Source of the DNA: a virus
Strand: one strand, 5' to 3'
IMG/VR virus record: IMGVR_UViG_3300035698_008372
Location: 1-64,000 of that record
DNA length: 64,000 nt
Position numbers and translations under genes: made by a program. The notes under the pieces were generated by a model that saw only the letters and a list, made by a program, of their open reading frames with translations, was not told the origin of the DNA and did not search any database. This document shows, one piece after another, positions 1 through 63,240 of the stretch. The stretch's first letter is position 1; every line of letters starts with the position of its first letter.

Positions 1-3000
1 AAAAAATTGGACAAAATAAAATTATCAGCGATGAACCAAGCACGAGCTAAAAAAGGGAATGTCAGTGCTAAGCAAAAAGCGATGGCAACTAAATTTAAAT
101 TCCAAGAGGATATTACAGAATCCCCAGATGATGTTATGGGAAATGCGTTCTACTTGAGATTTCATCATAGTGACGCGCGTGCATTCGGTTGGCAAAGAAA
201 TGGTGATCATGAAGGTGATGCCCTAGTTGGAGAAGAAAATGGAAAAACTCATGGTAGCATAATAGATCATGATGGTCACAGGGTTGGGAGTAGGAGCAAT
301 TTGCATTATGCCGGAAGATTGTGGACTTCACAAAAGATTATATCATTTTGGGATTATCCAAAAGCATCCGATTTGCCTAAGATGATTAAACAACTCAATA
401 AAGAATTGAAACAATATAATGAAAAGATTGACATCAATACTTGGGGCGTCGACGTTGTTGCCGATTCAAAAGGCAAATGGGCCAAAAAAATTAAAGGTGA
501 TGTAAATTTCAAAAATGATCGCTGGAATATATGGGACACTACTACTGTTATTATTCCATTGAAAAAATTCGCTGGCAGTGAAAAACGGACTGCAGAGGAA
601 ATGGGCAAATCACATTTATTGTCTCCATTACTGAAAAAGATAAGTGCGGCCAAAAAAGAGAAATTAAAGGCTATGGATAGTGCCCGATCCAAAAAGGGGC
701 ACACTTCCGCCAAACAAAAAGCCATGATGACCAAATTCAAATTTAGTGAAGATATCACTGAATCTCCGGACAAAGTAGCAATCAGTGATAATGGCACGGT
801 GACTCACCGAGACAATGAAGCTTATTCGTTTGCTCCCGGTGGAAATGATTTAAAAACGATGTTTATTAGTGACAAAGGCAGTAGTCATTCGAGTATGATT
901 GTACAGTATCCTGGTGTGGGATTCAATTGGGAATATTCGGGTAGGGTATGGATAAAACATAAGATAATAGCATTTTGGTATGTTCCAAATAAAAATAAAT
1001 TGAAAACCCAATTAAAATATATAAACAAAGCGTTAAAAGAGGTGACAGGGGTTCAAATTAATGACGATTGGCTGATCGAACTCAAGGGGGATTATTTCAA
1101 AAAAAATCCCGATAGGTTAGAACTCGCTCCATATTTTGAAGAACATGGGTATGGATTATTGCCGATTAAATATTACACAGGACAACCACCAAAGCACGAT
1201 TCCAAAGCGTATCAACAACATCAAGCTTCACCGATGAAGAAAAAGGTTAATAAGGCCAAATTGTCGGCTATGGGAAACGCTCGTATGAAAAAGGGTGGAA
1301 CTACCGCCAAGCAGAAAGCTATGGCAACTAAATTCAAATTTTCAGAAGATAAATTAAATGAGGGCAGGGTATTTAAATCGGCTGGTATAGTACCATATAT
1401 CAAAAAGGGTGGTGAAATATACTATTTATTGTTGCATAGTGGCCGCTTGTGGGGATTCCCTAAAGGTATGCTAGATAAGGGTGAGGACTCTGTTGCTACC
1501 GCAAAAAGGGAAACCAAAGAGGAAACTGGAATATCCATATCCAAAATTGATAGTGGATGGAAGGCGGCTCAGAAATTTTTCGTCAATGTTGATTATTCGA
1601 CTGGTGAGAAATTGGACAAGCCTGCCCCCAAATTTGTTGTTTATTTCTTGGGAGAATCACCAACTGAAAAAGTTAAGTTGTCATTCGAACATACGAAATA
1701 TAAATGGGTGAAATATGAAGAAGGCCTTAAATTATTAAAGTTCGGCAAGGATATACTTAAAAAAGCAAACGAGCATTTGATTAAAAATGAGATACGTGAA
1801 AGTGTTAAATTGAATGATGAAATAATTGGAAGATTTATAGAAGAAACGGATATCGTGGCAATAATTAAAGAGGCTAGTATTAATTCCAGGGCCCCAACTG
1901 ATGATGGCCCTCCAATTTTTTACAAGACATTCGCTGAATACAAAAGGGTATCCAAGAAATGGTTGAATTCCATGTTCCAAGAAACAGGTTGGGAAGTCAT
2001 GGATTACATATTGTCTCATGGTGCGGAAGACCCTGAAAATGATTTTACAATGGAATACAGTACGGTTCCTGCTGTTGCTTACGGAAAAACTGGTGATGGT
2101 GAGGGTTACCCAGACCCAGTTGGCAGGTATAAAAAACACTTCGCTAAGATGAATCGGGAACTTGGTTGGGAAATTATCAAGTGGATGGGAATTGATGGTA
2201 AAAAAGTTACGGGTGTTGGTGCGAAAGCTCCAGTCGCTGCAGGTGCCAAGGATGGTACTGAAAATTCGGATAGAATGGAAAAGGATAAAGAAATGAATGA
2301 AAATTTATTTACACAGGAATGGTGAAAAGCTGAATTTCTTCGTGGAGAATTGTTACAAGAAGGAGGAGCCTACGGACACATGGCTCACCCATTTGATAAC
2401 AGAGATTTGACTTTCGGGGATTTGAAAAAAATTATAGAATTGGGCTTGGGTGGACAACTAAATCGTGAGGATAATGTCAGTGAAAAACTGGATGGCCAGA
2501 ACCTTATGTTATCATGGAAAAATGGTAAACTAATCGCTGCTAGAAATAAGGGTCATATCAAAAATGCTGGAAAAACGGCATTAGATACAAAGGGTATGAT
2601 TGCCAAATTTAAAGGTAGGGGTGAGATATACAAAGCATTCGTATATGCCATGAAAGACTTGGGCAAAGCCATTGGTCAATTGTCGGATAAACAAAGGGAC
2701 AAGGTGTTCGATGAGGGTAAAAACTTTATGAATCTTGAAATCATGTGACCTGGATCTGCTAATGTGGTGGATTATGACTTGGCACAGATTATATTCCATG
2801 GGGCATTGAAATATGATGCCGCTGGTACTCCAATAGGTGAGGTTCCCGGTAGTGGTAGGATATTGGCTGGAATGATTAAACAGGTCAATCAAAGTGTTCA
2901 AAAACATTATAAGATAGAACAACCCATATTCTTGGATATTCCAAAGCATCAAGATTTTGGCAAGTTAAAGAAGAAATTCTCGGCCAGATTGGATAAACTA

Positions 3001-3585
3001 AAGAGTGAATTTGCACTTGGCGACAAAGCCACATTGGCGATGTATCATCAAGAATGGTGGAAATCATTTATAGTCAAACAAGCGGCAAAAATGAAAGCTA
3101 AAAATATCGGTGGTGCATTAGAGGGGTTGATCAGGAGATGGGGATTTTTTGAGAAATCATATAGTGTGGCGATGATGAAAGCAGATTTAAAGAATAATCC
3201 AGAATTTTTAGAATGGGCGTTAGCATTTGATAAGAATGACCACGCGGCTCAGGTTAAGGAAAATATGCTTCCATTCGAAACATTGTTTTTTGAGGTCGGT
3301 GCAACTATACTGAAAAATGTAAGTGGATATCTAGCCGTAAATCCAGATAAATCCGTACAGAACATGAAGGATGAATTTGAAAAGGCTGTTAAGGAAATTG
3401 AAAAAAAGGGTGATCCTAAAAACTTGAAACGATTGCATACACAATTAAAAAGATTGGATGCTATCGGGGGGTTGGATGCGGTTGTACCAACTGAGGGCAT
3501 TGTATTTAAGTATAATGGGCAGATATACAAGTTCACGGGTTCATTCGCTAGCATAAATCAAATTATGGGTCTATTGACTTTCTAG
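1..3585 (+). CDS. Large multidomain protein, 5' end outside window, 2 in-frame TGA (2323, 2746): tandem ~215-aa modules, Nudix hydrolase domain, C-terminal KxDG-motif domain
   Basis: ORFs 7..2325, 2350..2748 and 2764..3585 are in one frame separated only by TGA (QEW*KAEF; EIM*PGSAN). Nudix box GMLDKGEDSVATAKRETKEETG; GGAYGHMAHPFD...EKLDGQN. Confidence 0.75.
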
Positions 3586-3596
3586 GAGAAAAACGT

Positions 3597-3754
3597 ATGA
3601 AACTGTCCGATTTGAGGCGTTTAAAAATAAGAAAGTAATTGAAATAGATGTGTTCCATAAAGATTATGGTACTATTTATAAGAAACTAAGTGCAAGTGAT
3701 AAACGCACTGTGGACGCGGCGATAGGCGGTCCTGGTGAAAAAGGAGCATACTAA
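3597..3754 (+). pseudogene. Small frameshifted ORF (MKLSDL start, body in the -1 frame)
   Basis: AGGAG then ATG at 3597; this frame stops after 13 codons, but the -1 frame from 3614 is open to TAA 3754, abutting the next start at 3756. Confidence 0.4.
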
Positions 3755-3755
3755 A

Positions 3756-4016
3756 ATGAAAAAATCAGAATTAAGACAAATGATAAGAGAAGAAATTTTG
3801 AAGGAAACTGGCACAGATAAAAATTTGCTGGGTGGTATTGATAAAGGAATTCGACCCAAAGTGGCCGAAAAAGTATTTGCGGCCATGGCAAAACAAGACA
3901 AAAAATATGATAAAATGAATAGTTCGTGAAAAGAATTACTAAAATCCAACAACGATTTTTGAAAAGAATGGCAAAAATTTAGAAATGATGCAAAAGATTT
4001 TGCTGAAAACATGTAA
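3756..4016 (+). CDS. MKKSELRQ-leader protein (putative internal head protein), 2 in-frame TGA
   Basis: AAGGAG SD; MKKSELRQMIREEILKE; TGA at 3927 and 3960 read through to TAA 4016. Confidence 0.7.
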
Positions 4017-4857: not shown

Positions 4858-4915
4858 TATTTATAAGTGAACAAGTGTATATAGGAGAAATTTAGTGAAA
4901 AAATCAGAAACCATA

Positions 4916-5167
4916 ATGAAGAAATCAGAATTAAGACAGATTATACGAGAAGAAATCCAGAAATTGAATGAAGCCCGACCAATTAATATTGAAATTTGAT
5001 ATGACAATCCGAATGAAGAAAAATTTATTAAATCCAATGTTAAAAAATTTGGTGGTAAAATAATTAAACCATCTGGTGATCAAATTTCAACCATTTGGGA
5101 TGGGGATGGATATGAGTTTTCCAAATTGATGAAAAAGCATAAATTGAAAATTTATAGGTGGTATTAA
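4916..5167 (+). CDS. MKKSELRQ-leader protein, 1 in-frame TGA (absent from ORF track)
   Basis: MKKSELRQIIREEIQKLNE-ARPINIEI*YDNP; TGA 4997; TAA 5167. Alternative GTG start at 4895 has AGGAG SD. Confidence 0.7.
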
Positions 5168-5822: not shown

Positions 5823-6136
5823 TGAATAAGATATTTACATATATATGGAAGGGAATACTGGCGTTGGCTAGTATTGCATCCATATTCTTTGCTTTGAAGA
5901 ATAAAGAAATTAGGGATTTGAGCAAGGTTATCAAAGATAATAAGAAAAAAGAAAAAGAAGTCAAAAAGGAAATTGCCCAATTGGAGAATAATAAGCAGGC
6001 CAATAAAAAGGAAATCGAAAAGCTCAAGGGTGATTTGGACAATACTAAAAAAGAAATAGAAGAAATGGAAACTGTATATAAAAGCGATGATGTAGACGCT
6101 GCAGTTAAATTTCTCAAGGATTTTGCTAATGGTTAG
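5822..6136 (+). CDS. N-terminal TM plus coiled-coil protein (possible i-spanin-like)
   Basis: Hydrophobic ILALASIASIFFAL followed by a K/E-rich coiled coil. Confidence 0.5.
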   Translation: MNKIFTYIWKGILALASIASIFFALKNKEIRDLSKVIKDNKKKEKEVKKEIAQLENNKQANKKEIEKLKGDLDNTKKEIEEMETVYKSDDVDAAVKFLKDFANG

Positions 6137-6482
6137 ATGGATTATGATAATACTGATAGTATTATTGTCATGTGGATTTGGACAACATTCATTTACGGAT
6201 GAAGAAGTATTAAATATTGCCAATAAGGTGACTGAATTGCAACGGCAGGACAGTTTAAAGACAGTAGCTATGGTGACACAGGGTATGATTATAAAGAAAT
6301 TGGAATTCCAAGCGGAAATGGATTCTTCGATTATTGCGTCCAAAGATAAGAATATAGAAATTTTAGAAGAACGAGTAGAATTGGTTAAACCCAAATGGTG
6401 GCAGAATCCGAAGATTGCTTATGTCGGTGGAATGGCCACAGTATGATTTACATTATGGGCTAACGGGCAAATAGTGGGATAA
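6129..6482 (+). CDS. Membrane protein with signal peptide/lipobox-like LLSC and hydrophobic C-terminus, 1 in-frame TGA
   Basis: TGA 6444 read-through gives IAYVGGMATV(W)FTLWANGQIVG and ends just before the terminase start. Confidence 0.55.
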
Positions 6483-6483: not shown

Positions 6484-8070
6484 ATGATGAATGAAGCACA
6501 AAAACTAAAAGAGGCGATGAAGAAAGAGTACATTAAGTGTGCTGTTGATCCCACGTACTTTATGAGAAAATACTGCATCATTCAGCATCCGCAACGTGGT
6601 AAGGTAAATTTTAACCTTTATGATTTTCAGGCCGATACTCTAGAAAAAATAGTAAGCAATAATTACACTGTAATTCTCAAAGCTAGACAACTGGGATTAT
6701 CCACATTAACTGCCGGATATGCCCTTTGACTAATGACATTCAATACGGATAAGGATATTTTGGTTATCGCTACGAAACAGGATAAGGCCAAAAACTTGGT
6801 AACAAAAGTAAGGGTTATGCATGCAAATTTACCAAATTGATTAAAATCCACCTGTACGGAGGATAACAGACTTTCAATGAGTTATAAGAATGGCTCAAGA
6901 ATTAAAGCAGATACATCATCCCCAGACGCTGCACGATCAGAATCACTATCATTATTGATTCTCGATGAAGCGGCATTCATCCCAAAAATTAACGATATAT
7001 GGACAGCAGCTCAACAGACATTAAGTACTGGTGGCCGCTGTATTGCATTGAGTACACCAAATGGTGCTACTGGATGGTTTCACGATATATGGGTTGGTGC
7101 GGAGAATAAGGTTAATTCATTTTTTCCAATATATCTTCACTGGACGGTACACCCAGAACGTGATCAAGTATGGCGTGACAAGCAATCTTTGGATTTGGGC
7201 CCAGAATTGGCCGCCCAGGAATGCGATTGTTCGTTTATCACTTCTGGAAAATCGGTAGTCCCCGGTCCAATTATTCAATGGTATTTGGATAATTTAAAGG
7301 AAGAACCCATCGCACGAGAAGGTCTTGACGGTAACTATTGAAAATGGAAATATCCTGAAATTGGAGCATCCTATGTGGTTTCGGCAGACGTGGCACGTGG
7401 CGATGGTAAGGATTATTCCGCATTTCATGTAATTAATATTGACACATTGGAACAAGTGGCTGAGTATCAGGGGAAAGTCGATACTAAAGCATTTGGAGAT
7501 TTATGTGTAAATGTGGCTACAGAATATAATGACGCACTGTTAATTATTGAAAATGCCAATATTGGTTGGGGTTCGATTCAACAGGTTGTTGACAGGGATT
7601 ATAAGAATTTATTTTACGCCACATCGGACTTGAAATATGTGGATGTAAAATCACAGATGACAAACAAATATTATAGAGACGATCGAAAAATGGTGGCAGG
7701 GTTTTCAACTACTAGCAGAACCAGACCAATGATCGTGGAAAAACTGGTGGAATATTTTAGAGATAAAACCGCAATAGTACATTCCAATAGACTAATAAAT
7801 GAGTTATTTTCATTTGTATATGGTCCTGCTTCGGCCGCACAGGCCGATTATGGTGCTAATGACGATTTAGTAATGAGTTTCGCGATAGCCCTATGGGTAC
7901 GTGATACTGCAATTCGTCTAAGAACTGAGGGAATGACTCAGCAGAAAAATTTAATGAAGCAAATGGTGGATTATCAACCAGTTTATAGCGAAAGTAGTAA
8001 TAAAAATGATTCATGGAATTGGGACGACTCACATGGGAATAATGTTGGGTTGGACTGGTTGCTGGATTAA
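6484..8070 (+). CDS. terL: Terminase large subunit (gp17-like), 3 in-frame TGA (6727, 6838, 7339)
   Basis: KARQLGLST Walker A variant, LILDEAAF Walker B, STPNG, ADVARGDGKDYS, DDLVMS; three track ORFs join in frame. Confidence 0.95.
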
Positions 8071-8087: not shown

Positions 8088-11000
8088 ATGGCTGAAGGTA
8101 AATTAGCACGGAATTTAAAAAGATTATTTTCTGGAACCGTTATTGTTCGCAATATTGGTGGTAGAAAATTAAAGGTTGTGGACACGGACAATGTCCAATC
8201 TACTGTGAATAGAAATTTCATGGATAGATATACTAGATTGTACTCATCAATGGGTGGGTCAACTGGTCGTGCTATACAATTCTATCAAGCTGGGCAGAGA
8301 ATGGCCCTTTTCAAAGATTACGAACAAATGGATGCGGATGCTATTATCTCATCCGCACTAGACATTTATGCAGATGAATGTTTGGCAGGCGATACCATAA
8401 TTCCATTATTGGATGGTCAAAAATTGACTTTAAAAGAAATGTTTGATAATAATATGACCGATTTTTGGTTGTATGGTATTGACGATGGTGGAAATTTTAA
8501 ACCGTCTATGGGTAGATTTGTGGCATATAAGGGAAAATCCGATGTTTATAAAATAACATTGGAAGATGGTACGATATTGAAATCCACTGGAAATCATAGG
8601 TGATTGGATTCAAATAATAAATTGAAATATACTGAAAATTTTAAAGTCGGGGATGGAATTTATGCTCTTTCTACTAAAATAAGTGAACATAAAAATATGC
8701 CTGGATATGAAATGATAAAAAATGGAGAAAATTTCGAATTTGTTCATCGGATGGTTGCTAAAAATAATAAAATTTTATTGGAAGAACGAAAGCATAAAAC
8801 GGATAAGGCTGTAATACACCATAGTTCATTTGATAAGAGAAATAATTCTCCGGAACATTTAATTTGGCTTAATTCCAAAGAGCATTGGCAAATGCATGCT
8901 GATTTTAACAAACAATTGTGGTCAGATGATACCAAAACTCATGCATATAAAGACAAAATTAAGGAAGCACATGAGGCATATTGAACACCCGAACTTAAAC
9001 ATCAAGTAGCTATACGCCAGTCTAAATTTATGAAAGACTGAATGTCGAAAACTACTGACAATGAAAGAAAAGTTTTATTTGGGAATTATGGTGAAAAAAA
9101 TGGAATGTATGGCAACGGCGAATTGTTGTCTGGTAATAAAAATGGTAGATGAATATCATCAATGAATAGAATTAGTAAGTATGATTTAAATACACTAGTT
9201 GATTTATTAATGAAAGAGTATACTGGTGGTAAAAATAGCAGTGCTAGAAATATTTTATCTAATCACTACGATTTTAATCGTTCGGAATTTTTAAAATTTT
9301 CCAAAATGGTATGTGAATATTATGGAATATCAAATTTAAAATCATTACCACGTGAATATTATTTTGAGAAAAATAAACATTTATTATCTGACATGAGATT
9401 AAAAATATCCAAATTCAATAAAAATCCAAAGCGAAATTTTAATTTATTGTGCAATAATATAGGGACTACTAAAATAGAGTTTAATCATATATTAAATAAA
9501 GCTGGATATCATTCTTTTGGTGATTTTGCGGATTCTTCTAATCATAAAATTATATCTATTGAGAAATTGCCTGAATTGGAAGATGTATATGATATTATTG
9601 ATGTGGATGATACTAACATTTATGCGATTGAATCGGTCGATGGATCGAAAATATATACTCACAATTCTACAATGAAATCCGAATATGGTGATGTTATTGA
9701 GATTACCGCTGAAGATGAGGGTGTAAGGGAAGTATTACATAACTTGTATTATGACATTTTGAATGTTGAATTCAACTTGTGGCCATGAGTTAGAAATATG
9801 TGTAAGTATGGGGATTTCTTCCTGCATTTACAGATAGATGACAATTATGGTATATACAATGTTATTCCAATGTCGGCCTATGATGTGGTTAGACTTGAAG
9901 GATTAGACCCAGCAAAACCAAATGAGGTTAAATTTCAATTGGGCGAGGGTGAAACCAGACACATGGCTAAGGGTAATGATGAAACCGAGATGCTGGAAGA
10001 TTATGAGGTTGCACACTTTAGACTACATTCAGATTCAAACTATTTGCCATACGGTAAAAGTATGATTGAAGGTGGCCGTAAAACGTGGAAACAACTAACA
10101 CTAATGGAAGATGCCATGCTGATTCACAGAATCATGAGGGCCCCTGAAAAGAGAGTATTCAAATTGGATATTGGTAATATTGCTCCAAATGAGGTTGAAC
10201 CATTCATGAAATCGGTTATTTCCAAAATGAAAAAAACCCCAGTTATGGATGAACAGACTGGTGAATATAATTTAAGATACAACATGCAGAATCTCACTGA
10301 GGACTTTTTCCTTCCAGTGCGTGGTTCTGATAGTGGAACTGAGATTGACACATTATCTGGGTTGTCTTATGAGTCCACCGATGATATAGAATATTTGAAG
10401 AACAAAATGATGGCGGCTTTGAAAGTACCTAGGGCATTCTTGGGATACGATGAGGCTCTAAACAGTAAATCAACATTGGCAGCAGAAGATGTGAGATTTG
10501 CAAAAACAATCGAGCGAATCCAAAAGGTGATAGTTGACGTTTTGATGAAAATTGGTGTGGTTCACCTTTATACTCAAGGGTATAGGGATGAGAGAATGCT
10601 TAATTTTGATCTTAGCTTAACTAACTCGTCTATCATGTTTGAAGAGGAACGGTTGGAATTATTGAACAACAAAATTTCAGCGGCTAGTTCACTTCTACAG
10701 GACGATTTGGCACCTACAGATTGGATATATAATAATATCTTCAAATTCGGAAAAGCCGAACAAGAACAAATCAGACTGGAACTATTAAAAGACAAAAAAC
10801 GCAAGTTCCGTTATCAACAGATTGAAGATGAGGGAAATGATCCATTGAAATCTGGTGAAGCTGTTGGTACACAAGGTGCCATGATGGCCGCCGGCGGGGA
10901 AGAGGGCGGCGGACCCCCACATCCAGTTCCAGGTGGCGCACAGGAAGAAAATTATGGTGATTATGGAGAAGATAATGAAGCTCCTGCAGGTGGCCATCCA

Positions 11001-11264
11001 GGTGGTGGCCGACCTAAAGAAGGGCCTAAGTATGGTAAGGATAGTTCCGCTACCGGCCGTGATCCACTAGGAAAACATGACATGAAAAAGGCCAGTAGCA
11101 ATAGTCCTAAATACGGAAAAACTTTATCACTCTCACATTACGCGTCTTTAAAGACAAGATTGGGTGAAAAGTTCGTAGAAAAGAATCAAAAAATATTAAA
11201 AGAATCTGATGATATAGAAAAAGAATATAAAGATGATATTTCTAGCTCAGAGGACGCTGAATAA
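8088..11264 (+). CDS. Portal protein (gp20-like) with intein, 5 in-frame TGA (8601, 8982, 9039, 9150, 9786)
   Basis: IISSALDIYADE, KYGDFFL, LMEDAMLIHRIMRAPEKRVF, EDFFLPVRG, DIEYLK..LKVP; single frame with TGA read-through. Confidence 0.95.
8379..9665 (+). mobile_element. Intein (429 aa) with HNH homing endonuclease in the portal gene
   Basis: ADE|CLAGDT N-terminus, block B STGNHR, block F DVYDI, C-terminal THN|S; VHRMVA...IHH...DKRNNSPEHL HNH; GEKNGMYG NUMOD3-like motif. Confidence 0.92.
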
Positions 11265-11338: not shown

Positions 11339-12217
11339 ATGAGTAAAAATTTGCGACACAGCAAGATTAAGAACACTGGGATTTTATTTGAACTATTATC
11401 AAGACAGATAACAGTGGATGTTCTTAACAATAGGAAGAATTCTTCCGCCATAGATATTATTAAGAAGTATTTTAATGAGAATACGGAACTCGGAAGAGAG
11501 CAACAATTGTACCGTATATTGATTGGGGAAAATTACAATGTGGAATCTAAAGCGGATAAGTTGATTGAGGCGGTGATATCTTCACGCCAAAAAATCAAAA
11601 ATTCAAATTTGCACAACGAAAAATATAATCTCATTAAAGAGATCAAAGAGAATTACAGTGTAGATGAATTTTTCGCGGCCAGAATACCTAATTATAAAGT
11701 TTACGCGTCCATCTATAAATTATTTTTGTCTGAGACTTCAGGTGGTACATTCGATCCCGCCGAAGCTGTTAATAGCAGATTTACAATAATTGAACATATA
11801 ATTAGAAACCCAATTGCCAAAAAAGACAAGCAGGCTAAAATTGTTAGTGAGTATCAAAAGCAGGAAAAAGACTTGAGATTACTATCCTACCAAATTTTAG
11901 TTGACAAATTCAATGAACGCTATTCGGCGTTAGATTCCCATCAGAAAAAGTTGTTAAAGGAATATATTAATAATATTTCAAATACCAATAATTTGAGGGA
12001 ATATATCAATGTTGAATCTAAGAGAGTGACAAAGGAATTAAAATCATTGATTTCCAAGGTTGATGACGATATTACTCGTATCAAATTGAAGGAATCAATT
12101 GCTCAAGTCAGTAAGGTAACAACTGGCAAGCTTGTAAAAGATGATCAGGTAGTTAAGATGATGAGATATTATCAGTTAGTTAAAGAAATCAAGAAAACCA
12201 TCAAAGGAGATAAATAA
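11339..12217 (+). CDS. Head-module hypothetical protein
   Basis: 292-aa ORF downstream of TATTTATA and GGAG, between portal and protease. Confidence 0.75.
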   Translation: MSKNLRHSKIKNTGILFELLSRQITVDVLNNRKNSSAIDIIKKYFNENTELGREQQLYRILIGENYNVESKADKLIEAVISSRQKIKNSNLHNEKYNLIKEIKENYSVDEFFAARIPNYKVYASIYKLFLSETSGGTFDPAEAVNSRFTIIEHIIRNPIAKKDKQAKIVSEYQKQEKDLRLLSYQILVDKFNERYSALDSHQKKLLKEYINNISNTNNLREYINVESKRVTKELKSLISKVDDDITRIKLKESIAQVSKVTTGKLVKDDQVVKMMRYYQLVKEIKKTIKGDK

Positions 12218-12990
12218 TGAGTGACGCGTTACGGAATTATATTAGGGAATTAGTAGAAGCTGAGTTGGCCGAGGCCAATGCGACTGGTAACATTGATGGT
12301 GGTGAAGGTCCTCCTAAGACTCCCAATGCATTCAGAAACAAAAAAAATGGTAAGGTTGAAAAATCCGGCAGAGCAAAGGGTCATAAAGACCCAGCGGTAG
12401 GTGAATACACAAAAGCTGATGTCAGCAACAAATATATTAAAAAAATGTATGAAACTATGGTAGCACATAGGGTGTCATTGAATGAAAAACTGGGTATCGA
12501 AGCAAGAGAACTTCAGATTTTTATTGATAATGACCAAGCATTGTATAAACAGCGGTTTATTCCAATTTTGAAGAATTTATCTAAGAAAAAGAAATCTGGT
12601 AAATTTGACGCCGCTTTGGCTCCAAAATTATTTATGTATTTGGTTGACGATGGTGCAAAACGATATGTCAAAGAGTATGGCGGTAATGTACGTGATGTGT
12701 TCCCTAAAAAGGAACGTATGGAATTGGCTAAAGAATATGCTGCAGATTTTGAAGAAGCATTTGAAAATAAAGAATATGATTTTATGAATGAAGATATGGC
12801 TCCAAATAAGGTGGATCAGGCTGAGAATGATTGGGGCAAACTCAAACACGCTCACTGACTGATAAGTTCGGTGGCCAGTGACGCCGGTGGTTATTCACAA
12901 TCTTCCAGTTCAAAAATCTCAGTAATATCCAAGGGATTGGACGGGGTAATGAAATATTTTAAAAAAGATACTGGTATAAAGGGGAAATAA
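12217..12990 (+). CDS. Putative head core/internal protein, 1 in-frame TGA (12856)
   Basis: LRNYIRELVEAELAE leader variant; read-through ends at TAA 12990, 1 nt before the protease ATG. Confidence 0.7.
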
Positions 12991-17012: not shown

Positions 17013-17014
17013 AA

Positions 17015-33640: not shown

Positions 33641-33957
33641 TGCCAGTAATGGATAAAAATGAGTTGCCAAAAAGACAGCGATTGCAGATTGATTTGGACG
33701 GTCCCGATGGTAACGCTTTTGTTATATTAGGTTACACCAAATCCCTTTGCAAATCGGTTGGGTACAATGAACAACAGGCAAAGAAAATTTCAGCTGAAAT
33801 GAAGGAATCCGATTATGATCACTTATTATTGGTATTCTTGAAATATTTCGACGCTTATGTGGATATATGGACTTCCAATGCAGACCTACTCAAAACATTG
33901 AATGATCATGTGAAACACAAAATGTTTGCAGACGATATATTGGAACATGAAGATTGA
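33640..33957 (+). CDS. Phage hypothetical protein (GPDGNAF motif)
   Basis: ORF track; ends at TGA, with a TAA 7 codons later if read through. Confidence 0.7.
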   Translation: MPVMDKNELPKRQRLQIDLDGPDGNAFVILGYTKSLCKSVGYNEQQAKKISAEMKESDYDHLLLVFLKYFDAYVDIWTSNADLLKTLNDHVKHKMFADDILEHED

Positions 33958-33978
33958 TCATATTCCGAATGAAAATAA

Positions 33979-53018: not shown

Positions 53019-55891
53019 TGGGTATATTAGATTTAACAAGTGACCTATCAAAAAATGCGGGGATTAATTTGAGTGTCCACGGTGAAAGGCATGGGGGGAC
53101 TGAACCCGGTGGTTTGCCAGTACACCCCGATGGACATTCTATATTGGATAACTCGGCCGGCGACAATTTAAGTGAGCACGGTGGCCGTCATGGTGGCACT
53201 TCAAATGAAACACCATCACGACCATCGCATTCCCCTAATCATTCTTCATTGGACAATGGGGTTGGCAATTCAAGTAATGCACAAACATTTGATGATGGGC
53301 ATGGATATACTGTTACTGGAAATAAATATTGGACAAGACCAAATGCCAGTGCATTGGCACAGATGTTAGAATCGGTGGGTGGTACATATACTCCTACTGG
53401 AGAAGGTGTACAAACTGGACCAGTAAATTATTTTAGTGGTATAAGTGGTGAGTGGGGTGCCGGAACGTCACCTCTTGGATTCACATTTGGATTCACTGAT
53501 AAGAATTCGTCTGAGTTGACACGCGGTACTGAACAGGTAATAACATTGCCAACATCCTATCCCAAAACAAGATCAGTATTCAATCACTACACTATTCCAG
53601 CCTTTGAGAGCTCTATTTATTACGACGCTGATACAGATATGGCCGCTCCATCACACAATCCAGGTACTATCATCACACGGCAAATGGGTAGAACTACTCC
53701 ACCTCCAGGATTATCGGCAACACACGCGGCTATTAACACATCATTTCCAGAGGGCCAACCTACATTTCATATTTCAAAACAACATGGCTTTACTGGGGAA
53801 TATGGGGTGCAAGATAGAGAATCTGGAACATACATATTAAATACTCCAGAAACTGTTCCGTCCGCCCCATTATTATTTGCAGGACTTTTTGGATTAAATA
53901 AGGGGAGTAGGTTTTCAGACTTGGCAGACCCCGCACAATTGAAATACCCATCTGCTGATATATTTGGAACATCGTATTCAGAAATGACTTCATTGGGCTC
54001 CAATATAACAATTCCTGAGACATCATTGGATAAATTTCAACAATATACTGGAGAGGACACGTTTACTAATTATTTTGCAAGAAGATCACGATATGACAAA
54101 ACTACATTTGACACCCTATCCATAGGGAATTATTCATCAGAATTTCAACTTGGTAAGGCCAAAGAAAATTCGCCAGAGTTTGATAACGAGGGGTTCAAAA
54201 AATCGCTGGCGTATGCTGGAAAAAATAGAGAAGGGGATGGCCAACTTGGATGGGAAACTTCAATCTCCACAATTACAAAGGGACCCAAATCCAATCTGGC
54301 CAAATTGCACAAAGATGGTACGGATAATGTGGATAGTCTTGAAGATTATTATGGTCGGGGATTCAAAAAGGATAACAACCTTGCATATAGAAATGACAAT
54401 GTGATTGGATTCGATCAACCCTATTTCCTTAAAGAAATTGGGGATAGATGGGGAATAGATGCCATGGGCGATACCGATATCGGTGTTGTTAGGGGTGGTT
54501 TGAACACCGCTATAGCAAGAACTATTGCCGATGAAATAAGAATTGCAAAATTTATTCTTACTCCAAAGGGAATTGTGTTTGCATTAAAACAGGCTGTATT
54601 TCAGAGATTTAATACGAGAGCCGAAACTAGATTGTGGAATCCGATTTCACTATTTACTTCAGTGATTCCGGCTATACATGGCCAACGGCATGTGGATCAA
54701 ACTAGACCACAATTTGCACCAACCGCTCCAGCGGATATTTTAAAAGACCCCGCAAAATGATTTAAACAAAAAGCGGAAGGTGTGTTGAATACAGGACCCG
54801 CCCAAGATTCTGGTATTGATACGGCTAAAACGTCATTGGAACATTATTTTGCAAAAGAGAGGGCTATATTGGATTATGAAGTTAATCCTTTGGCGGCCGA
54901 AATTGATAAATTTCTAGGTATTCCAAGTGAAATGAGCCGTGAAATTGATAGGGTTCGCCAAATATCCACTGGTGAAAAGAGCAAGACTCAGTTCGGCCCT
55001 TTTGCTGGAAATTGGAAAGGGGACCCACTCAATCAAGTTGTTGCAGATGTTGGTGACCCTGGAGCACATGGGGAACTTAAAGAAATTGAAAATCTGGGGT
55101 ATATCAAATCAAATCTGGGTGATAACAATATAGTAACTTCAAACTTGGACAGGGTCAACGCATTGCCTTATGGACTTGTTGGTGGTTTGGAACCCGGATC
55201 AGAGGGCACCAATGGATTGGGGAAAGTTACGGATTTCATTCCATTTAAATTCAAAGATGCTGTTAATAATAAATGAATTATTTTCAGAGCTATATTGTCA
55301 GGGATATCCGATAGTGTATCTCCAGAATGGTCAGAAGAGCGGTATATTGGCCGACCAGATAAGGTTTATACATATACTGGAGTGGATAGGGAAATTAGCT
55401 TCAATTTTAATATATATCCAAAGACAAAACAGGAACTGCCTATCTTGTGGGAAAAAATGAATTATTTAGTTGGGATGTGTTATCCTAGCTGGAAAACATT
55501 CACTAATACTAATTCACAACGTATGATATCACCATTTGCCGAATTAACAATAGGCAATTTATGGAAGAATGCTCCTGGATTTCTAACTAGTTTGTCTATT
55601 ACAGTGGAAGATAATACCACATGGGAAATGGATGAGCATTTTCAATTGCCCAAGCATTTGAGTGTTAGTGTTGGGTATAAATACATTGGGAAATATAATC
55701 CCGATCAACTTGGCAAACATTATGAATTGGATTGGTTGGATTTACAACACCAAAAAGATAATATCAATGGAGACCCAGATAAAGGAATTGCTCCAAAAGC
55801 AGCATTCGGTGGTTATCCTGATAGAAATACGGATGCATTGGATTTGAGGGGTTTATTTGATGCTCTAGGTCAAGCTGGTAATGGCGATTAA
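53018..55891 (+). CDS. Baseplate/tail-tube initiator-like protein, 2 in-frame TGA (54758, 55274)
   Basis: Three track ORFs in one frame; C-terminal FRA.LSGISD...W....YIGR....Y.YTG..R.ISF.F tube-like domain. Confidence 0.7.
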
Positions 55892-56212: not shown

Positions 56213-58759
56213 ATGATTAATTTACAACCAATACACGAGAAAATTCGTCGGGAATTGCATAAGAGGGAAAAACTCTTAAACAGGGATGGCATCCTATTTG
56301 AAGGTCCCCAAACCGATGGTACTGGTAAAAAGAAAGCTGACGCCAACAACATTTTTGCCAAATCTACTTGGATCAGAATGATGTCTCCCGGTTTAAAATA
56401 TGACAAAGAATTGTCTCCAGAGGAAAATAAAAAGCTGGGTAACACCAAGGATGTTGTTTCTATAGGCGGTGGATTATTAAAAGAAGATGGCTCCATGTAT
56501 TTTGGATATGATGATATGTATAATTCTCCTAGAAATACTGGAGAAAATTCCTATAGACCTGTTCCAGGAATAAAAAATATTAGTGTTGAATATAAGGATG
56601 CGATGGTGGCATTAAGGCGTGCCACCATAACTTGAAAAGTATGGTCTTTTGAGGACTTGGAAAAGCTTCAATCATTTTTTATGAAATCCGGCAAATCGGT
56701 TATTTTGGAATGGGGGTATTCTTATGAGAAAAATGATATCAATTTGATGGATATTAAAGACTTGAATTATAAAACTATATATAAGCGATTTATTGAAAAG
56801 GCGTTCAATTCTGGAGGAACTTATGATGGAATGATGGGCGTTATTACAACTTGGGAATGGTCTGTTGCCGATGACGGGTCTATAGATTGCACCACTAATA
56901 TATCCAGTATGGGTCTGGATATATTAAAACAGCAAACTACTCCAGTCGACGATATTAACATATCCCAAACCACAAAATCTTCAGCGTCAAGTACCGAAGA
57001 TCAGAAACAAACAGTCCCCACAATGACATTTAATAAATTTTTGGAAGATATTCATGATAAATTAACTTTTCAAATAGCCGACGCATCCCAATCAGGCAAT
57101 CCAATATCAAATGTGGCTTTTCTGGATGGCAAATTGTATATGTCATGGGGATGAATTGAAGATAATATATTAAGTAGGTATTTGGGCAAAGTTAATGGTA
57201 AGGGTGAAATTTTAAATTCTATAAGAAGTATTGAACCAGTTTTGGATGATGCCGGCAATCATCTTGGGTTGAATCAAATTAAAGATTTGGAATCAAAATA
57301 TAGCGGATTGGAATTAGCCAAAGTGCAAAAAATAAAAAGTGGATTAAATAACGAAAACGGACCACCCGCATATATTTCAAGTGAAATGTCAAATCACACA
57401 TCATTGTTATCTCCAAATTATAGCTTTTTTATATTACCTGGGCAATTTAAAAAAACTGATAGGGATTTATTTGATTCAAATGCACGACCTGTTCATCCAA
57501 TATTGGTAGCATTTGATAAGGAAAAATCGAAATTTTCCAAATTCGAATCCCGCAAAGGTGTGGGATCACAGAGTAGTAATGTTACATACGGGTACATGAG
57601 AAATATAGTATTTAATTGGAACTATTTGGTGGAAAATGTATGGAAGGATTCCGATAATATAAAAACTGCTATGGATAGGTTGTTTCAACACATGAATGAA
57701 AATGTGGGAATCTGAGATTTAAAAATCATAGCTTCTCCAGATAACCCATCCCAGTTGAAAATAGTTGATATGAATACTGTGAAATATAATATTTCGGATT
57801 TGCTTAAAAAGGATAATAGTAGTAAATTATCGTCGGATTGGAATGATGCCCTTGGCCTGTTATTTAAATTCAATACATTGTCCAAAGATAGTATAGTATC
57901 TGGTCACAGTTTAACGTGTAAAATTCCAGACGCAATGGCCATGGCGACGATGTACTCAAATTCCACAACTACTATATCTCCGGCCACCGCAGGCGGATCA
58001 AAGGCTATCGCGATAGGGTCGTCTGATAATGATGTAAAAGATGGAATAATGGATAATATTTCACCGGGATATATATGGGATAAATTCGGGAATTCTACGG
58101 GAATGACCAATGACGATATCAATTTAACCGGTGGGTTTACAATAGATGTAACGCCCCAATCTGATTCATCTCAAGGAATTACAACGAATACTCCGGCAGA
58201 AATAAAATCCGCTACCATATCTTCAATGAAATTTAATGCCGATCAATATTTGGCATTTAAAGATGGGGATATTGGAACCGATGGGACAATATATAATACA
58301 TACGGGGATTCGATTGGAAAAATGAGGAATCCAAAAACTTTATTTTATCTGGATATTATGAAATATCTAATAGGTCATGACCCCAAATATTCCACAATGT
58401 ACAATCAGGCTCCCCTAATTCCGATTGAAATTTCATTGACAATGGATGGTATTTCTGGGATATTTCCCGGTAATTGTTTTCAAAATGATTACATGCCCAA
58501 ACAGTACAATGAAATTTCAGTATTCCAAGTATTTACATCAACTCAAGAATTGGATAGTTCTGGGTGAAAAACCACCATAGGCGGGAAGCTTAGAGTGGAC
58601 ATGTCAAAACTCGCCCCAGATTATGTGGAAGCTTCTATAAAAGAAATGGAACAAAAAATACAAGATGATCTGGCACTGGCCGAAAAACAAGAAAAGGTCC
58701 GACTGGCCGAAGCTGAACGAGAGTTCATTGAAGGTCAAAATAATGCAGGTAATTTATAA
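56213..58759 (+). CDS. Baseplate hub-like protein, 4 in-frame TGA (56633, 57152, 57713, 58565)
   Basis: Four track ORFs in one frame; read-through ends in a TAATG overlap with the next gene. Confidence 0.7.
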
Positions 58760-59343
58760 TGAAAACTATTAATGAAATAAAAGAAAAATTGAATATGAAA
58801 TTGACAGGGTTCACCACATCAACCAATGAATTTACTTATGAAAATGGTACATGGGTCAGACCCGATATTTCATATTCCATATACTACACTAAGGATAAGG
58901 AAGAGCACTACATTTCAGAAACGGTTATTCCTGAGAAAATGATTAGGGTTAAGGGGAGCTCCGCATTTGCACAATATAGTGAGTCCAAAAATGGAAATAT
59001 GGAATCCACTAAATTCGTAAATTCGTATATGCCAAAAGTTAAAAAACCCGATATTAAGAGGGGGTACATGATTAGATACTTTGTGCAACCAAAAAACCAA
59101 CCTCACGTGGATTTAACCGAAATCAATAAATCTGGGTTCAATGGTGATTTAACCTACTATAAGAAACGCAAAATAAATTGGAAAATTGTTGGTGCAAAGA
59201 ACACTGTAATAGGGGAAAATAAACGAGCTCTAAAATACCTGAATAAACAATATCCAGATACATTTATCAGTATGGGCCCACTAGAATTTTGACAGGGGAC
59301 TTCAAGTAAAAAGGAAGAAATCGAAAAAAAACTGGGGCTTTAG
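58759..59343 (+). CDS. Hypothetical baseplate-region protein, 1 in-frame TGA (59290)
   Basis: RGYMIRYF motif; PLEF*QG read-through to TAG 59343. Confidence 0.65.
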
Positions 59344-60701: not shown

Positions 60702-62822
60702 ATGAGTTTTGACTACAATCCAGAAGAATATTTAGATGCTTTGGTAAATGAATGGGCATACAGAGTAAATAATGGGACACCGAATCCACATGATTTCGGC
60801 CACCAGATGGCACTGCGGGACATTTTAACAGAGTGGGATTGGAATATGCCTACAATTAATGAATTTATTACCAACCTTAAAAATACGACACCCGCCAATG
60901 AAGCGATTGGTAAAGTGTATATTCAAGATAAAGAAGCACCAGCGGGTGCTCAAGTTAAGACTGGTCCTAAAGGTGGTAAATATTACAGGGGGAACACCGA
61001 AACTGGGGAACCTGATAATTCCGATGAAGAGGGAGAATCCGAAGACAATTCCGAATCAAAACCAGAAGAATCGGATAGCTTGATAACTGGTGACCCATCC
61101 GAGGGGGATAATCAAGTTAAATTGGATGCATTCGAATATGGGTATGGTGATTTTGAAAAGGAAACTGGTTCCAAACCAGCTCCTGGTGGAGCGGGATCAA
61201 TGTTCAATGAAATTGTATCTGGTGAGGGCGTACACATGTTATCCAAAAATTCGTCTATGAAAACTGATGAACTGGCCATGGAAATGTATAAGAAATATCA
61301 TGGGACAAAATTGTCTAAAGAACAGAAAAAGACTCCGATGCCCGCTAGCCAGATACCACAACCATTGAGGGATAAAAAAGATCAGGCGTCCAAAGCTGTC
61401 AGGGAAGCTAAGAAAAGTGGAGATAAAAAGGTGATGAAAGCTGCTATAGAAGAATTCGCCGCCGCTGAACAGAATATTGGGTACTATACAAAATGTTTGG
61501 TATCGGCTCGATCTGCCAAGAAAAAATACACAAATACCATATCTAGAGTAGCCAATTTACAAAAAGAGGGGGCGTTTGGAAAATCCAAACGAGTTGACAC
61601 ATTTTATGGAGCAAACCAATCATTGGCTGCACAGGTGGCGAGTGTGGAAAATGCCAGAAGTGTATTGTTGCCAAGTGGGCAGAAAGTTTCAAAAGACGAT
61701 GCCATTGTCTTTGTCAAAGCTGGTGGTGGTGGTGCAAATCCATCTGATACGGCCACCTTTGTTTCGGATGAAAAAGGAAATTTATTAATACAATTCCATT
61801 CGGATAAAACATCGACTGGTGATATTCAAGATAATTCAACATTAGCAAAAGAAGGTGATAATTACAAAGATGCCATTGATGCACAGGGTGGATTATCCAG
61901 AGAAGAAAAGGATAATTCCAAAAAAATCGTGGATGAATACTCCACCAAAATGGATGAGGTTGAAAAGAATTACAATAATCAGGCCGTTCCAATTGCACAA
62001 AGATTGGAAGAATTGCCATTTAAAGATCAAATGTCCATTATCAACAACGATAAGGGGTCATTGGGTAAAAATATAGAAGCGGCATTGTTTGGAAAAACTG
62101 GATTGAAACCCCAATATAAAAAACTTGTACCAGCTGGAGTTGATCCTAAAAAATTATCAATGGAACTGAAATACAAAATGATTAGAAAATTGGTAGCCAG
62201 CGGTGCTGGAAAGCCTAGTGATGTTAAAGCCATTAATAAAGTTGGTCTTGGATTACAAAAAAAGAACCCTGATATCGAGGGGATTGATGTTAAAAAGAAC
62301 CTATCGGTCCAGCGTAAATTGGCTGTTAAATTGCAGAGAGATAGGATCAACGCGTTAAATGAAACAGTTGCCGAAGTCGACGGGGTAGATGTACCATTGG
62401 GCAGATTAATGGAAGCTGAAGAAACGATTAGGGGATTCCACTTGAAATTATTGGATTACCCGCCTAAGAAATATGAAGAGGGTAACCCTGGAAGTATGGT
62501 AGGGGATAGCTTGGATATCAATATGGGTGGAACAGTGGTTAATGGTGATGTATTGAGGCAAGCATTGGGAGTACAAAATACTACAGAATTCAAGAAACAA
62601 TTCAGACTTGAAGAGACTGATGAATTGACTAAAGATGCCAATAATAATATCACTGGGAAAGTCGTATTTGTATATGCTGTCAAAGCTGGTGGTGAAAAAA
62701 TACAAATAGGGTACAAAACCTATAGATCAAAATCTGGTGCCACAGGCAAAACATCCAATACTATGCAGTATAGTAAGGAAATGCAAAAACGATTTAAAGA
62801 AATATCGGATAAGGAAAAATAA
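60702..62822 (+). CDS. Large hypothetical late protein
   Basis: 706-aa ORF with TATTTATA and GGAG upstream. Confidence 0.75.
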   Translation: MSFDYNPEEYLDALVNEWAYRVNNGTPNPHDFGHQMALRDILTEWDWNMPTINEFITNLKNTTPANEAIGKVYIQDKEAPAGAQVKTGPKGGKYYRGNTETGEPDNSDEEGESEDNSESKPEESDSLITGDPSEGDNQVKLDAFEYGYGDFEKETGSKPAPGGAGSMFNEIVSGEGVHMLSKNSSMKTDELAMEMYKKYHGTKLSKEQKKTPMPASQIPQPLRDKKDQASKAVREAKKSGDKKVMKAAIEEFAAAEQNIGYYTKCLVSARSAKKKYTNTISRVANLQKEGAFGKSKRVDTFYGANQSLAAQVASVENARSVLLPSGQKVSKDDAIVFVKAGGGGANPSDTATFVSDEKGNLLIQFHSDKTSTGDIQDNSTLAKEGDNYKDAIDAQGGLSREEKDNSKKIVDEYSTKMDEVEKNYNNQAVPIAQRLEELPFKDQMSIINNDKGSLGKNIEAALFGKTGLKPQYKKLVPAGVDPKKLSMELKYKMIRKLVASGAGKPSDVKAINKVGLGLQKKNPDIEGIDVKKNLSVQRKLAVKLQRDRINALNETVAEVDGVDVPLGRLMEAEETIRGFHLKLLDYPPKKYEEGNPGSMVGDSLDINMGGTVVNGDVLRQALGVQNTTEFKKQFRLEETDELTKDANNNITGKVVFVYAVKAGGEKIQIGYKTYRSKSGATGKTSNTMQYSKEMQKRFKEISDKEK

Positions 62823-62823
62823 T

Positions 62824-63240
62824 ATGAGAACGCAGCTGTTATGTACTTTCTCGAAAAGGAACCAACTACACGATACATTGGATTTGATAATTGATTATCA
62901 CGATATACTATTTAATAAGGTGTATGTATTTCAGAATGAAGATAATTTTCATCAGCTGATATGCACGTACAATATTGAACAGGAAACGGAAAATTACCTT
63001 ACAAATAAGGATACCATTTCATTGCATAGGAAAAAGCAATCAAATACACTATACACTATTAACGCTCTAAATGAAATAATCAGGCGTAAAAATAATGGGG
63101 TACTGGATAAGCAATTTCCTATTGATTGAGATGAATTCAGAAATAATCTGTTATTAACAAACTCATCGGGGTTTGTCAAAATACCCACTCGGATATACAC
63201 CATCATAAATGTAACCGAATGGGAATCTAAAGAAAATTAA
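62824..63240 (+). CDS. Hypothetical protein, 1 in-frame TGA (63127)
   Basis: MRTQLLCTF...HRKK.SNTLYTINALN...FPID*DEF read-through to TAA 63240. Confidence 0.75.

Follow-up and report, generated by a model that had tools for sequence, protein, structure and literature searches.

An aquatic myovirus with sparse in-frame TGA codons that align with tryptophan, and a candidate five-armed tRNA(UCA) to decode them

The 64,000-nucleotide (nt) stretch analyzed here, called the window below, raises the question of whether the TGA codons that interrupt its structural genes are read as sense codons and, if so, as which amino acid and by which decoder. The window consists of bases 1 to 64000 of the 140,003-bp IMG/VR contig IMGVR_UViG_3300035698_008372 (linear record, GC content 37%) and is the opening 64 kb of a lytic-type myovirus. 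When genes are called with TGA as a sense codon, all but one of the approximately 228 genes of the contig lie on the plus strand. An initial annotation had proposed that TGA is recoded, probably to Trp, across the structural module. Our analyses make it probable that the phage decodes UGA as Trp by means of its own tRNA(UCA), likely in a standard-code host in which such decoding would be costly or conditional.

Each of the 30 coordinates listed in the initial annotation proved to be a TGA codon, in frame, in a plus-strand open reading frame (ORF) closed only by TAA or TAG. The genes for the large terminase (TerL), the portal and the sheath are interrupted three times, five times and once, respectively, by TGA only and never by an in-frame TAA or TAG, and reading through the TGAs restores the full length of their homologues. 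The read-through ends given at the time (12990/12992, 18960/18962, and 58759) were also recovered by the TGA-sense gene call. The list of sites was nevertheless incomplete, as this call adds TGAs at 28520, 33955, 33970, 45954, 46570, 47893 and 63703. The TGAs at 28520, 33955, 33970 and 45954 are all located at most 10 codons from the end of their ORF.

We gathered approximately 150 related loci and searched them by tblastn with an X placed at each TGA. A site was considered spanned if a single high-scoring segment pair (HSP) had at least 15 aligned residues on either side of it. This was the case for 20 of the 30 sites (2323, 2746, 4997, 6727, 6838, 7339, 8601, 8982, 9039, 9150, 9786, 12856, 20044, 39648, 49608, 54758, 55274, 56633, 57152 and 57713). 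At 6444, 35679, 58565 and 63127, shorter or close-clade alignments cover the site and stop nearer to it. The support for 3927, 3960, 18769 and 19097 is that of gene architecture, with an ORF that extends to abut the next start or a leader sequence, MKKSELRQ, joined to the body of the protein only via read-through. Two sites are ambiguous, namely, 32188 in a weak small ORF and 59290, which precedes a TAG by 17 codons.

Could these TGAs be true stops that split genes or mark pseudogenes, or could they reflect errors in sequencing or assembly? A gene call with table 11 still covers 88 to 89% of the DNA, since the fragments can restart at TTG or GTG codons. However, Shine-Dalgarno (SD)-like motifs precede only 2 of 28 would-be restart codons after TGAs, compared with 49% of real starts and a background of 10.5%, and half of these restarts are TTG or GTG. 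The post-TGA pieces thus do not behave as separate genes. Moreover, only TGA interrupts the genes, and homologues align across it. The same phage was found by exact-protein look-ups in at least seven other samples (JGI, ENA and Logan), and table-11 gene calls in independent assemblies split TerL (80, 154 and 231 aa) and the portal (171, 126, 36, 208 and 488 aa) at the same places, arguing that the TGAs are not assembly errors. They are also kept in relatives at approximately 78% nucleotide identity. We thus give virtually no credence to true stops. Comparing coding densities, as had been suggested initially, did not decide the question. Reading TGA as sense raised the density from 89.1% to 91.4% in the window and from 87.9% to 88.7% in the contig, and density under table 11, TGA-sense or TAG-sense calls was abandoned as a criterion because the differences were too small. 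Calling TGA as sense reduced the number of contig genes from 267 to 228 and increased that of ORFs of at least 500 aa from 9 to 13.

The identity of the amino acid is indicated by homologues such as those of TerL. In an alignment of 50 relatives, all three TGA columns contain Trp in every standard-code sequence that covers them (40 to 43 of 40 to 43), as they do in the closest cultured phages by TerL, Microcystis phage Mel-JY01 (55%) and Flavobacterium phage immuto (50.5%). Similarly, the portal extein column at 9786 is Trp in 35 of 35 standard-code relatives. Alignment of TerL, portal and sheath homologues had been proposed with Trp as the expected residue; this expectation was borne out for the first two but not for the sheath, whose column is variable. 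Over all sites, Trp accounts for 191 of 389 aligned residues. Across the 18 sites with standard-code relatives, the plurality residue is Trp at 8 or 9 and aromatic (Trp, Phe or Tyr) at 12 or 13; it is Gly or Ser at none. Columns with other aromatic residues include 2746 (Tyr), 49608 (Phe or Tyr) and 56633 (Phe), and the remaining sites lie in variable columns.

The phage belongs with a recoded sister group with which it shares 85 to 89% TerL identity and approximately 78% nucleotide identity. At the codon level, its TGAs face only TGA (34 cases) or TGG (8 cases) in this clade, and its TGGs face TGA 12 times. Among approximately 100 aligned terminal TAA or TAG stops, none is a TGA in recoded-clade relatives. 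Together, the Trp columns and the exclusive exchange of TGA with TGG rule out Gly (code 25), Ser, Cys and selenocysteine as the general meaning of the codon, as well as pseudogenes, and these alignments support TGA as a Trp codon in this phage. The preference for Trp over Gly in the initial annotation was thus well founded. Of the sequence contexts cited in its favor, SWG*IED and LPN*LK are at poorly conserved columns and carry little weight on their own. Two other sources of columns were of no use: the giant proteins of the relatives L311 and L312, aligned to read further TGA columns, yielded none at 23% identity, and the TGA column in PhoH aligns with a His of PDB 3b85 and is uninformative.

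Glycine deserves separate mention, as TGA is read in this way by phages of Absconditabacteria and Gracilibacteria. The only tRNAs of the contig are three tandem paralogous tRNA-Gly-like genes at 81817-82058 (L055:1333-1574), a feature that might be expected of a Gly-recoded phage. Their anticodons are, however, UCC (with a 6-nt loop and weak T-stem pairs, in the gene at 81817), UCC and an unusual ACC. None is UCA, and they suit the two top Gly codons of the phage, GGT (1163) and GGA (777), so that supplying these codons is a simple explanation for the trio. With Gly in 7 of the 389 aligned residues, all in one variable sheath column, as the plurality at no TGA column, and with zero TGA-GGN exchanges, a Gly reading is hardly credible.

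What then decodes UGA? The initial annotation had seen no suppressor tRNA or release factor (RF) gene, which holds for the window and for the entire 140-kb contig. We found no tRNA in the window, and ARAGORN at default, intron or relaxed settings detected no UCA tRNA in the contig. Similarly, the contig yielded no RF-1-domain protein, RF antagonist, class-Ib synthetase or tryptophanyl-tRNA synthetase (TrpRS). A "tRNA-Cys" called at 126491 with relaxed settings was dismissed for its poor stem and T arm. The statement fails for longer assemblies of the phage, in which a tRNA(UCA) is found 15 kb upstream. L180, which overlaps bases 1 to 4656 of the window at 99.98% identity and reaches 15.6 kb further upstream, has one match to the Rfam tRNA clan with a UCA anticodon, at L180:428-520, ending 15,065 nt before window base 1 (32.5 bits with the tRNA-Sec model, E = 0.004). 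This 93-nt element occupies the gap between the TGA-containing PhoH gene and a gene for a 90-aa protein, with a Peptidase_M15_3 (endolysin-like) gene approximately 1 kb downstream. Its sequence is identical in nine assemblies of the phage, and the fold of lowest energy (-37.3 kcal/mol, z = -3.57) takes the form of a cloverleaf to which an extra arm is added.

Orthologues of the element were sought by using similarly split PhoH fragments first and full-length PhoH relatives thereafter. Five more phages with in-frame TGAs (L302, L307, L306, L311 and L312) have it at the syntenic site, with 38.7 bits for the L306 orthologue, and among the loci searched, it was seen only in TGA-recoded relatives. 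RNAalifold analysis of four sequences gave a 7/5 cloverleaf with a 6-bp extra arm, in which 14 of 28 pairs are kept via two-sided changes. Pair counting showed that 98.2% of the cells are paired, with 14 double-change pairs versus 4.5 +/- 1.7 in shuffled controls (0/500) and 0 to 2 when the partners were slid. In contrast to these covarying stems, the anticodon loop CUUCAAA is invariant in the six orthologues, as are A1-U72, G2-C71, G4-C69, G73 and the extra-arm loop GUCCAAA. A covariance model of the family detected no second copy in the contig, and its top match outside the family was a phage tRNA-Trp(CCA).

Other searches added no family members. Two split-PhoH leads were rejected, one as a bacterial frameshift and the other as an error-prone long-read contig. 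Related-locus searches with a 374-aa protein encoded near the tRNA, or with PhoH as the lone query, gave no matches, and no homologues of the 90-aa neighbor were found. An exact 15-mer scan of IMG/VR with the anticodon arm returned chance matches only, and a search of five recoded-clade contigs with RF00005 identified no tRNA.

The element has the acceptor features of a tryptophan tRNA. In Escherichia coli trpT (K-12 record), the acceptor stem is AGGGGCG/CGCCCCU, the discriminator is G73 and the anticodon loop reads CUCCAAA. The acceptor stems and discriminators of L311 and L312 are identical to those of trpT, and the tRNA of the present phage matches its first five pairs, with A1-U72, G2-C71, G3-C70, G4-C69, G5-C68 and G73 all present. 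G73 and this set of acceptor pairs are bacterial Trp identity elements (PMC9976931). The anticodon position carries UCA, not CCA, and instead of a short class-I variable loop there is a long extra arm with CCA in its loop. MAFFT pairs the trpT anticodon arm with this extra arm rather than with the UCA arm. In L311 and L312, 14 of 17 nt of the UCA arm and 15 of 17 nt of the CCA-bearing extra arm are identical to the trpT anticodon arm. Deleting the UCA arm in silico from these two sequences made ARAGORN call a tRNA-Trp(cca), and deleting the extra arm made it call a tRNA(tca). The element is most simply read as a tRNA-Trp that underwent a tandem duplication of its anticodon arm. On this reading, the 5' copy took the anticodon position and changed C34 to U, and the 3' copy, located where a class-II variable arm would be, retains its Trp-type loop under purifying selection. 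It is possible, though in our view rather doubtful, that the CCA arm is kept as a TrpRS anticodon determinant that the UCA arm has partly lost, or as a block against mischarging by the seryl- or glutaminyl-tRNA synthetase (SerRS or GlnRS). In the open-access literature, we found no Trp tRNA with a long or duplicated arm. The tRNA(UCA) genes end with G-CAA or G-CAT and do not encode CCA. A gene for a 483-aa CCA-adding enzyme (PolyA_pol and PolyA_pol_RNAbd, with a weak HD match), devoid of TGA, is located at L180:11332-12783, approximately 2.8 to 4.3 kb upstream of the window.

A tRNA of this shape might also be charged with serine, as allo-tRNAs or tRNA-Sec are, in which case TGA would be read as Ser. 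SerRS ignores the anticodon, and the top Rfam model for the element is that of tRNA-Sec. Its recognition of tRNA relies mainly on a long extra arm and G73 (PMC5389517, PMC9976931), where SerRS is meant. Nevertheless, TGA is found in invariant Trp columns of TerL and the portal, the clade swaps it with TGG and never with TCN or AGY, Ser is nowhere the plurality residue, and the acceptor stem is of the Trp type (A1-U72) rather than the Ser type (G1-C72), all of which makes serine very unlikely. Related tRNA classes were discarded on structural grounds. Although the single-sequence fold is 8/4, as in an allo-tRNA (8/4 or 9/3), conservation does not extend to its eighth pair, and covariation supports a 7/5 consensus for the alignment, arguing that the element is not an allo-tRNA. 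A tRNA-Sec inserting selenocysteine was rejected in view of the sub-threshold scores, a 7/5 rather than 8/5 fold, more than 60 UGA sites, and the Trp columns.

Alternatively, TGA may well mean Trp while the element has some other role, with decoding by a host tRNA or by one encoded in an unassembled part of the genome. The D and T loops are non-canonical in the clade of the phage, and approximately 1% or more of the genome may be unassembled. In addition, a suppressor is recognizable in only approximately 35% of code-4 phages (10.1101/2021.08.26.457843). Yet the UCA loop is unchanged in six diverged orthologues while the stems covary, and the confinement of the element to TGA-recoded relatives among the loci searched and its full Trp acceptor identity set also point to a decoder. 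We regard a different role as unlikely.

Recoding by the phage is sparse and uneven. Counted over the contig, internal TGAs number 61, spread over 40 genes, compared with 682 TGGs. TGA represents approximately 10% of the Trp codons. This share is 16.7% in the head and packaging module (1 to 20.6 kb), 10.3% in the tail module, 7.4% in the region for replication and nucleotide and sugar metabolism, and 1.6% and 5.2% in two small-ORF regions (regional heterogeneity, chi-square p = 0.002; clustering by gene, p = 0.0006). Recoding is thus enriched in the structural module, where it had first been proposed, but it is not limited to it. It is genome-wide and includes PhoH, as well as RecA, glycosyltransferases and an epimerase with one or two TGAs each. 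The genes for the DnaB-like helicase, ribonucleotide reductase, RNA ligase, polynucleotide kinase, DNA ligase and major capsid protein are TGA-free.

Several features suggest that TGA is tolerated at a cost. The A-ending share, TGA/(TGA+TGG), is 0.10, versus 0.42 to 0.80 for other A/G codon pairs. Between the phage and the recoded clade, the exchange of TGG for TGA is 5%, approximately tenfold rarer than other synonymous G-to-A changes, which reach 31 to 60% (Lys, Glu, Gln, Leu and Arg). Below its compositional equilibrium and rarely gained from TGG, TGA is therefore selected against although tolerated. In-frame TGAs are also over-represented at ORF ends, as 14 of 75 are within 10 codons of the end, versus 36 of 682 TGGs (p = 1.4e-4). 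Twelve of these 14 are in small-ORF regions, and several make ATGA overlaps with the next start. They look like either fossil stops, harmless because a TAA or TAG is close by, or stops that remain active until suppression sets in. The relatives of one protein from the 3' small-ORF region were all distant. Standard-code relatives already make little use of TGA as a stop, with approximately 10% of orthologue ends. The extent of recoding varies widely within the family of tRNA-bearing relatives. In the more distant L312 (Logan DRR337539), which has the same tRNA, a 1726-aa ORF (773-5953) contains 11 TGAs and 1 TGG.

Three observations favor a standard-code host: TGA is selected against, small ORFs have stop-like TGAs, and a phage-borne decoder is conserved in the clade. 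If the host itself used code 4, with its own tRNA-Trp(UCA) and no RF2, the phage would simply follow it and the upstream tRNA would be an accessory. This would fit the lack of RF, RF antagonist and TrpRS genes among those found in the contig, the presence of TGA in all gene classes including RecA and PhoH, and the use of TGA far above TGG in the large gene of L312. It sits poorly with the under-use of TGA relative to AT pressure and the selection against TGG-to-TGA changes, and with the enrichment of stop-like TGAs at the ends of small ORFs, one of which faces a TAA stop. The entire recoded clade retains its own tRNA(UCA) under purifying selection, and the standard code is used by a sister clade (approximately 60% TerL identity) whose SD-rich signals are the same. 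We know of no free-living aquatic code-4 bacteria. A code-4 host is thus improbable. SD-like motifs precede 44 to 49% of starts in this phage, 45 to 59% in the standard-code sister clade, 50% in one recoded relative, and 4% in immuto, making a Bacteroidota host unlikely.

We propose that the phage would supply its own opal-decoding tRNA(UCA) from the PhoH/endolysin-like locus. The host TrpRS would presumably charge it; we found no TrpRS gene in the phage. In what is most likely a standard-code host, UGA decoding would then compete with RF2 and be costly or conditional. Such competition would explain the TGA share of approximately 10%, the rarity of TGG-to-TGA changes, and the concentration of TGAs in head, tail and lysis-proximal genes, while small, probably early ORFs would retain stop-like TGAs backed by a close TAA or TAG.

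A number of observations weigh against this account. The Rfam scores of the tRNA family, 24 to 38.7 bits, are under the gathering score of 47, and ARAGORN misses the element by default, calling it as a tRNA-SeC(tca) only at -ps80. The tRNA is located outside the window and the 140-kb contig, and the version in the subclade of the phage is devoid of the canonical D-loop GG and T-loop UUC. From the tRNA features alone, its long arm and G73 would leave serylation open, although the protein columns speak otherwise; those columns are the sole source from which we infer the inserted amino acid. Instead of acting as early stops, the stop-like TGAs could be fossils that do no harm, and the standard code of the host is deduced rather than observed.

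The contig is part of a larger genome. Its CheckV completeness is 71%, which would imply approximately 197 kb, but ENA assemblies of 156,958 and 158,485 bp (the contigs behind L168 and L296) bear the same genes, and the genome may be approximately 158 kb. L296 reaches approximately 2.9 kb upstream beyond L180. One end of the long assemblies is near the 3' end of the contig (approximately base 139,940), and the ends of two assemblies have no mutual overlap.

The window encodes the C-terminal part of a giant NUDIX protein, the large terminase, an intein-split T4-type portal, a gp23-type major capsid protein, and a head-tail adaptor. It also encodes the tail sheath, an HNH homing endonuclease, an NAD-dependent DNA ligase, the baseplate hub, a tape-measure-like protein, and several large tail proteins. 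TGA-containing genes of the window are detailed in Table 1.

Table 1. Genes of the window with in-frame TGA codons, annotated by Pfam and PHROG matches, and the comparative record at each site
Gene product	Position	Strand	TGA codon(s)	Domains and gene limits	Record at the site(s)
Giant (~1805 aa) NUDIX-containing protein, C-terminal 1194 codons	1..3585	+	2323, 2746	Pfam NUDIX	In standard-code relatives, 2323: W in 17/20; 2746: Y in 6, W in 1
Small leader-bearing protein	3735..4016	+	3927, 3960	ORF extends to TAA 14 nt ahead of next start	3927: only paralogue alignments, barely reaching the site
Small leader-bearing protein	4895..5167	+	4997		TGA in same column of recoded relative L050, alignment continuing for 55 residues; separate W-to-TGA swap in L050
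Membrane-anchored small protein upstream of TerL	6129..6482	+	6444	TGA 12 codons before TAA	TGA kept in 3-4 recoded relatives, then conserved FTLWANGQI tail; standard-code relatives read on with I or T
Large terminase	6484..8070	+	6727, 6838, 7339	Pfam Terminase_6N	
T4-type portal with intein (aa 105-513)	8088..11264	+	8601, 8982, 9039, 9150 (intein); 9786 (extein)	Pfam Portal_T4 and Intein_splicing	Intein columns, in order: W/F, W, F, W in 3 intein-bearing relatives
Head-module protein	12217..12990	+	12856	Read-through stops one base before start at 12992	TGA kept, alignment continuing, in 3 recoded relatives; standard-code homologues stop ~20 residues earlier
Head-module protein, first of three successive genes	18433..18960	+	18769		
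Head-module protein, second of three	18962..19738	+	19097		TGA links conserved MKKSELRQ leader to body 81% identical in L140
Head-module protein, third of three	19738..20493	+	20044		TGG in relative L140
Small ORF	28343..28537	+	28520 (stop-like)	TGA 5 codons before TAA	
Weakly supported small ORF	32047..32487	+	32188	Low coding score	Homology limited to aa 78-121, downstream of TGA
Small gene	33640..33978	+	33955, 33970 (stop-like)	Then TAA at 33976	33955: terminal TAA in relatives L061 and L065
Head-tail adaptor-like protein	35652..36818	+	35679 (codon 10)	PHROG 211	Y in 3 standard-code relatives, TGA in 2 recoded relatives
Tail sheath	39252..41630	+	39648	Pfam sheath domains	85 spanning HSPs, variable column (I, S, L, A, V, G, others); TGA kept in 6 recoded relatives
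Small gene	45468..45965	+	45954 (stop-like)	ATGA overlap with ATG at 45953	
Baseplate hub-like protein	49200..49976	+	49608	PHROG 150	F in 33 and Y in 20 standard-code relatives; TGA in 2 recoded relatives
957-aa tail or baseplate protein	53018..55891	+	54758, 55274		1 and 22 spanning HSPs; variable columns
848-aa tail or baseplate protein	56213..58759	+	56633, 57152, 57713, 58565	End overlaps next start	First three: 13, 5 and 4 spanning HSPs, columns F/L/M, variable, N/F; 58565: W in one relative
194-aa protein	58759..59343	+	59290	TGA 17 codons before TAG	No homologue reaches the site
Conserved small protein	62737..63240	+	63127		W in Flavobacterium phage immuto (standard code)

Some of these genes have features of their own. 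In longer assemblies, the first one is a 1805-aa ORF free of TAA and TAG (ext_up 16697-22114), in which a cytidylyltransferase-like part and the NUDIX domain are joined across six TGAs; its homologue in relative G001 has 2057 aa, 11 TGAs and internal repeats. The portal intein (Pfam Intein_splicing, E = 8.5e-13) is present in only 3 of approximately 40 relatives. A near-identical leader, MKKSELRQ(I/M)IREEI, which looks like a capsid-targeting or propeptide signal, opens many small head-module proteins (window 3756, 4916, 18433, 18962 and others, and also in L140 and L063). Residues 78 to 121 encoded by the ORF at 32047 match the N-terminal region of the gp23-type capsid proteins of relatives (45 to 50% identity over approximately 40 aa). 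The gene at 33640 is followed by a terminator-like GC hairpin with a T-run (33976-34010) that is kept in L061 and L065. A related-locus search with the 848-aa tail protein gave no matches. The HNH/homing endonuclease (PHROG 3339/559) and the NAD-dependent DNA ligase, both TGA-free, lie at 41722-45365, where they separate the sheath from the remainder of the tail module.

Recoding of TGA to Trp by phages is an established phenomenon, known chiefly from the gut. It has been described for the Agate, Jade and Sapphire clades of code-4 gut phages (Borges et al., bioRxiv 10.1101/2021.08.26.457843), with which the present phage shares a low GC content, close standard-code relatives in which TGA stops are rare, and a terminase TGA that aligns with Trp. 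As in those phages, TGA is enriched in structural and lysis-proximal genes, and as in Jade, the presumed suppressor tRNA is closely followed by a lysis gene. The proposed competition of a phage tRNA with RF2 in a standard-code host also follows the model put forward for gut phages (10.1101/2021.08.26.457843). In contrast, this phage is of an aquatic Immutovirus- and Mel-JY01-like myovirus lineage with much sparser recoding, which affects 10% of Trp codons and shifts coding density by less than 3 points. Neither an RF1 nor a TrpRS module was found, and its presumed suppressor is five-armed and not called by standard tRNA finders.

The tRNA itself resembles E. coli trpT and its UCA opal-suppressor derivatives in its acceptor stem and G73, with the same anticodon loop except for C34 to U. 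It differs from trpT by an extra stem-loop of 17 to 19 nt in the variable-arm position, which resembles a Trp anticodon arm (15/17 nt, loop GUCCAAA). With allo-tRNAs, selC* tRNA-Cys and tRNA-Sec (Mukai et al., PMC5389517), it shares a long extra arm, UCA in some of them, occurrence in phages, and sub-threshold detection by the tRNA-Sec model. Unlike them, it has a 7/5 fold, not 8/4 or 9/3, G rather than the U73 of selC*, and an acceptor stem of the Trp type; moreover, the protein columns are Trp rather than Ser, Cys or selenocysteine, and there is no selB or SECIS context.

Mycoplasma and Spiroplasma also read UGA as Trp with a UCA-anticodon tRNA. These bacteria lack RF2 and encode Trp predominantly by TGA, whereas in this phage TGG makes up 90% of the Trp codons and TGA is selected against. 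Phages of Absconditabacteria that use code 25 similarly have in-frame TGAs in structural genes; here, Gly is not the residue of the TGA columns and a tRNA-Gly(UCA) is lacking.

What is new is the aquatic lineage related to Immutovirus and Mel-JY01, the sparseness of its recoding, and a five-armed tRNA-Trp(UCA) supported by covariation. This tRNA explains why no suppressor had been visible earlier; because of its five arms, it escapes ARAGORN at default settings as well as the general tRNA model of Rfam. The finding bears on two questions, code change without a findable suppressor tRNA and the early stages of codon reassignment. No suppressor tRNA is recognizable in approximately 65% of code-4 phage genomes (10.1101/2021.08.26.457843). 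One large recoding survey demanded a 10% gain in coding density (PMC13037316), and recoding as sparse as this, with a gain of less than 3 points, escapes coding-density screens. As for annotation, the phage and its relatives need TGA to be translated as Trp; otherwise, TerL, the portal and many tail proteins are fragmented, as in public gene calls.

An architecture in which a Trp acceptor stem is joined to a UCA arm and to a conserved extra arm bearing CCA offers a testable idea of how tRNA identity could be kept when the anticodon changes. If the idea is true, the CCA arm would be a built-in identity handle, with which the phage would impose UGA as a Trp codon on a standard-code host using the host TrpRS alone. 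Relatives that have this tRNA use TGA anywhere from sparsely to almost completely and form a comparative series for codon capture; if the two-armed model is correct, their use of TGA for approximately 10% to more than 90% of Trp codons would represent a natural series of stages in codon reassignment.

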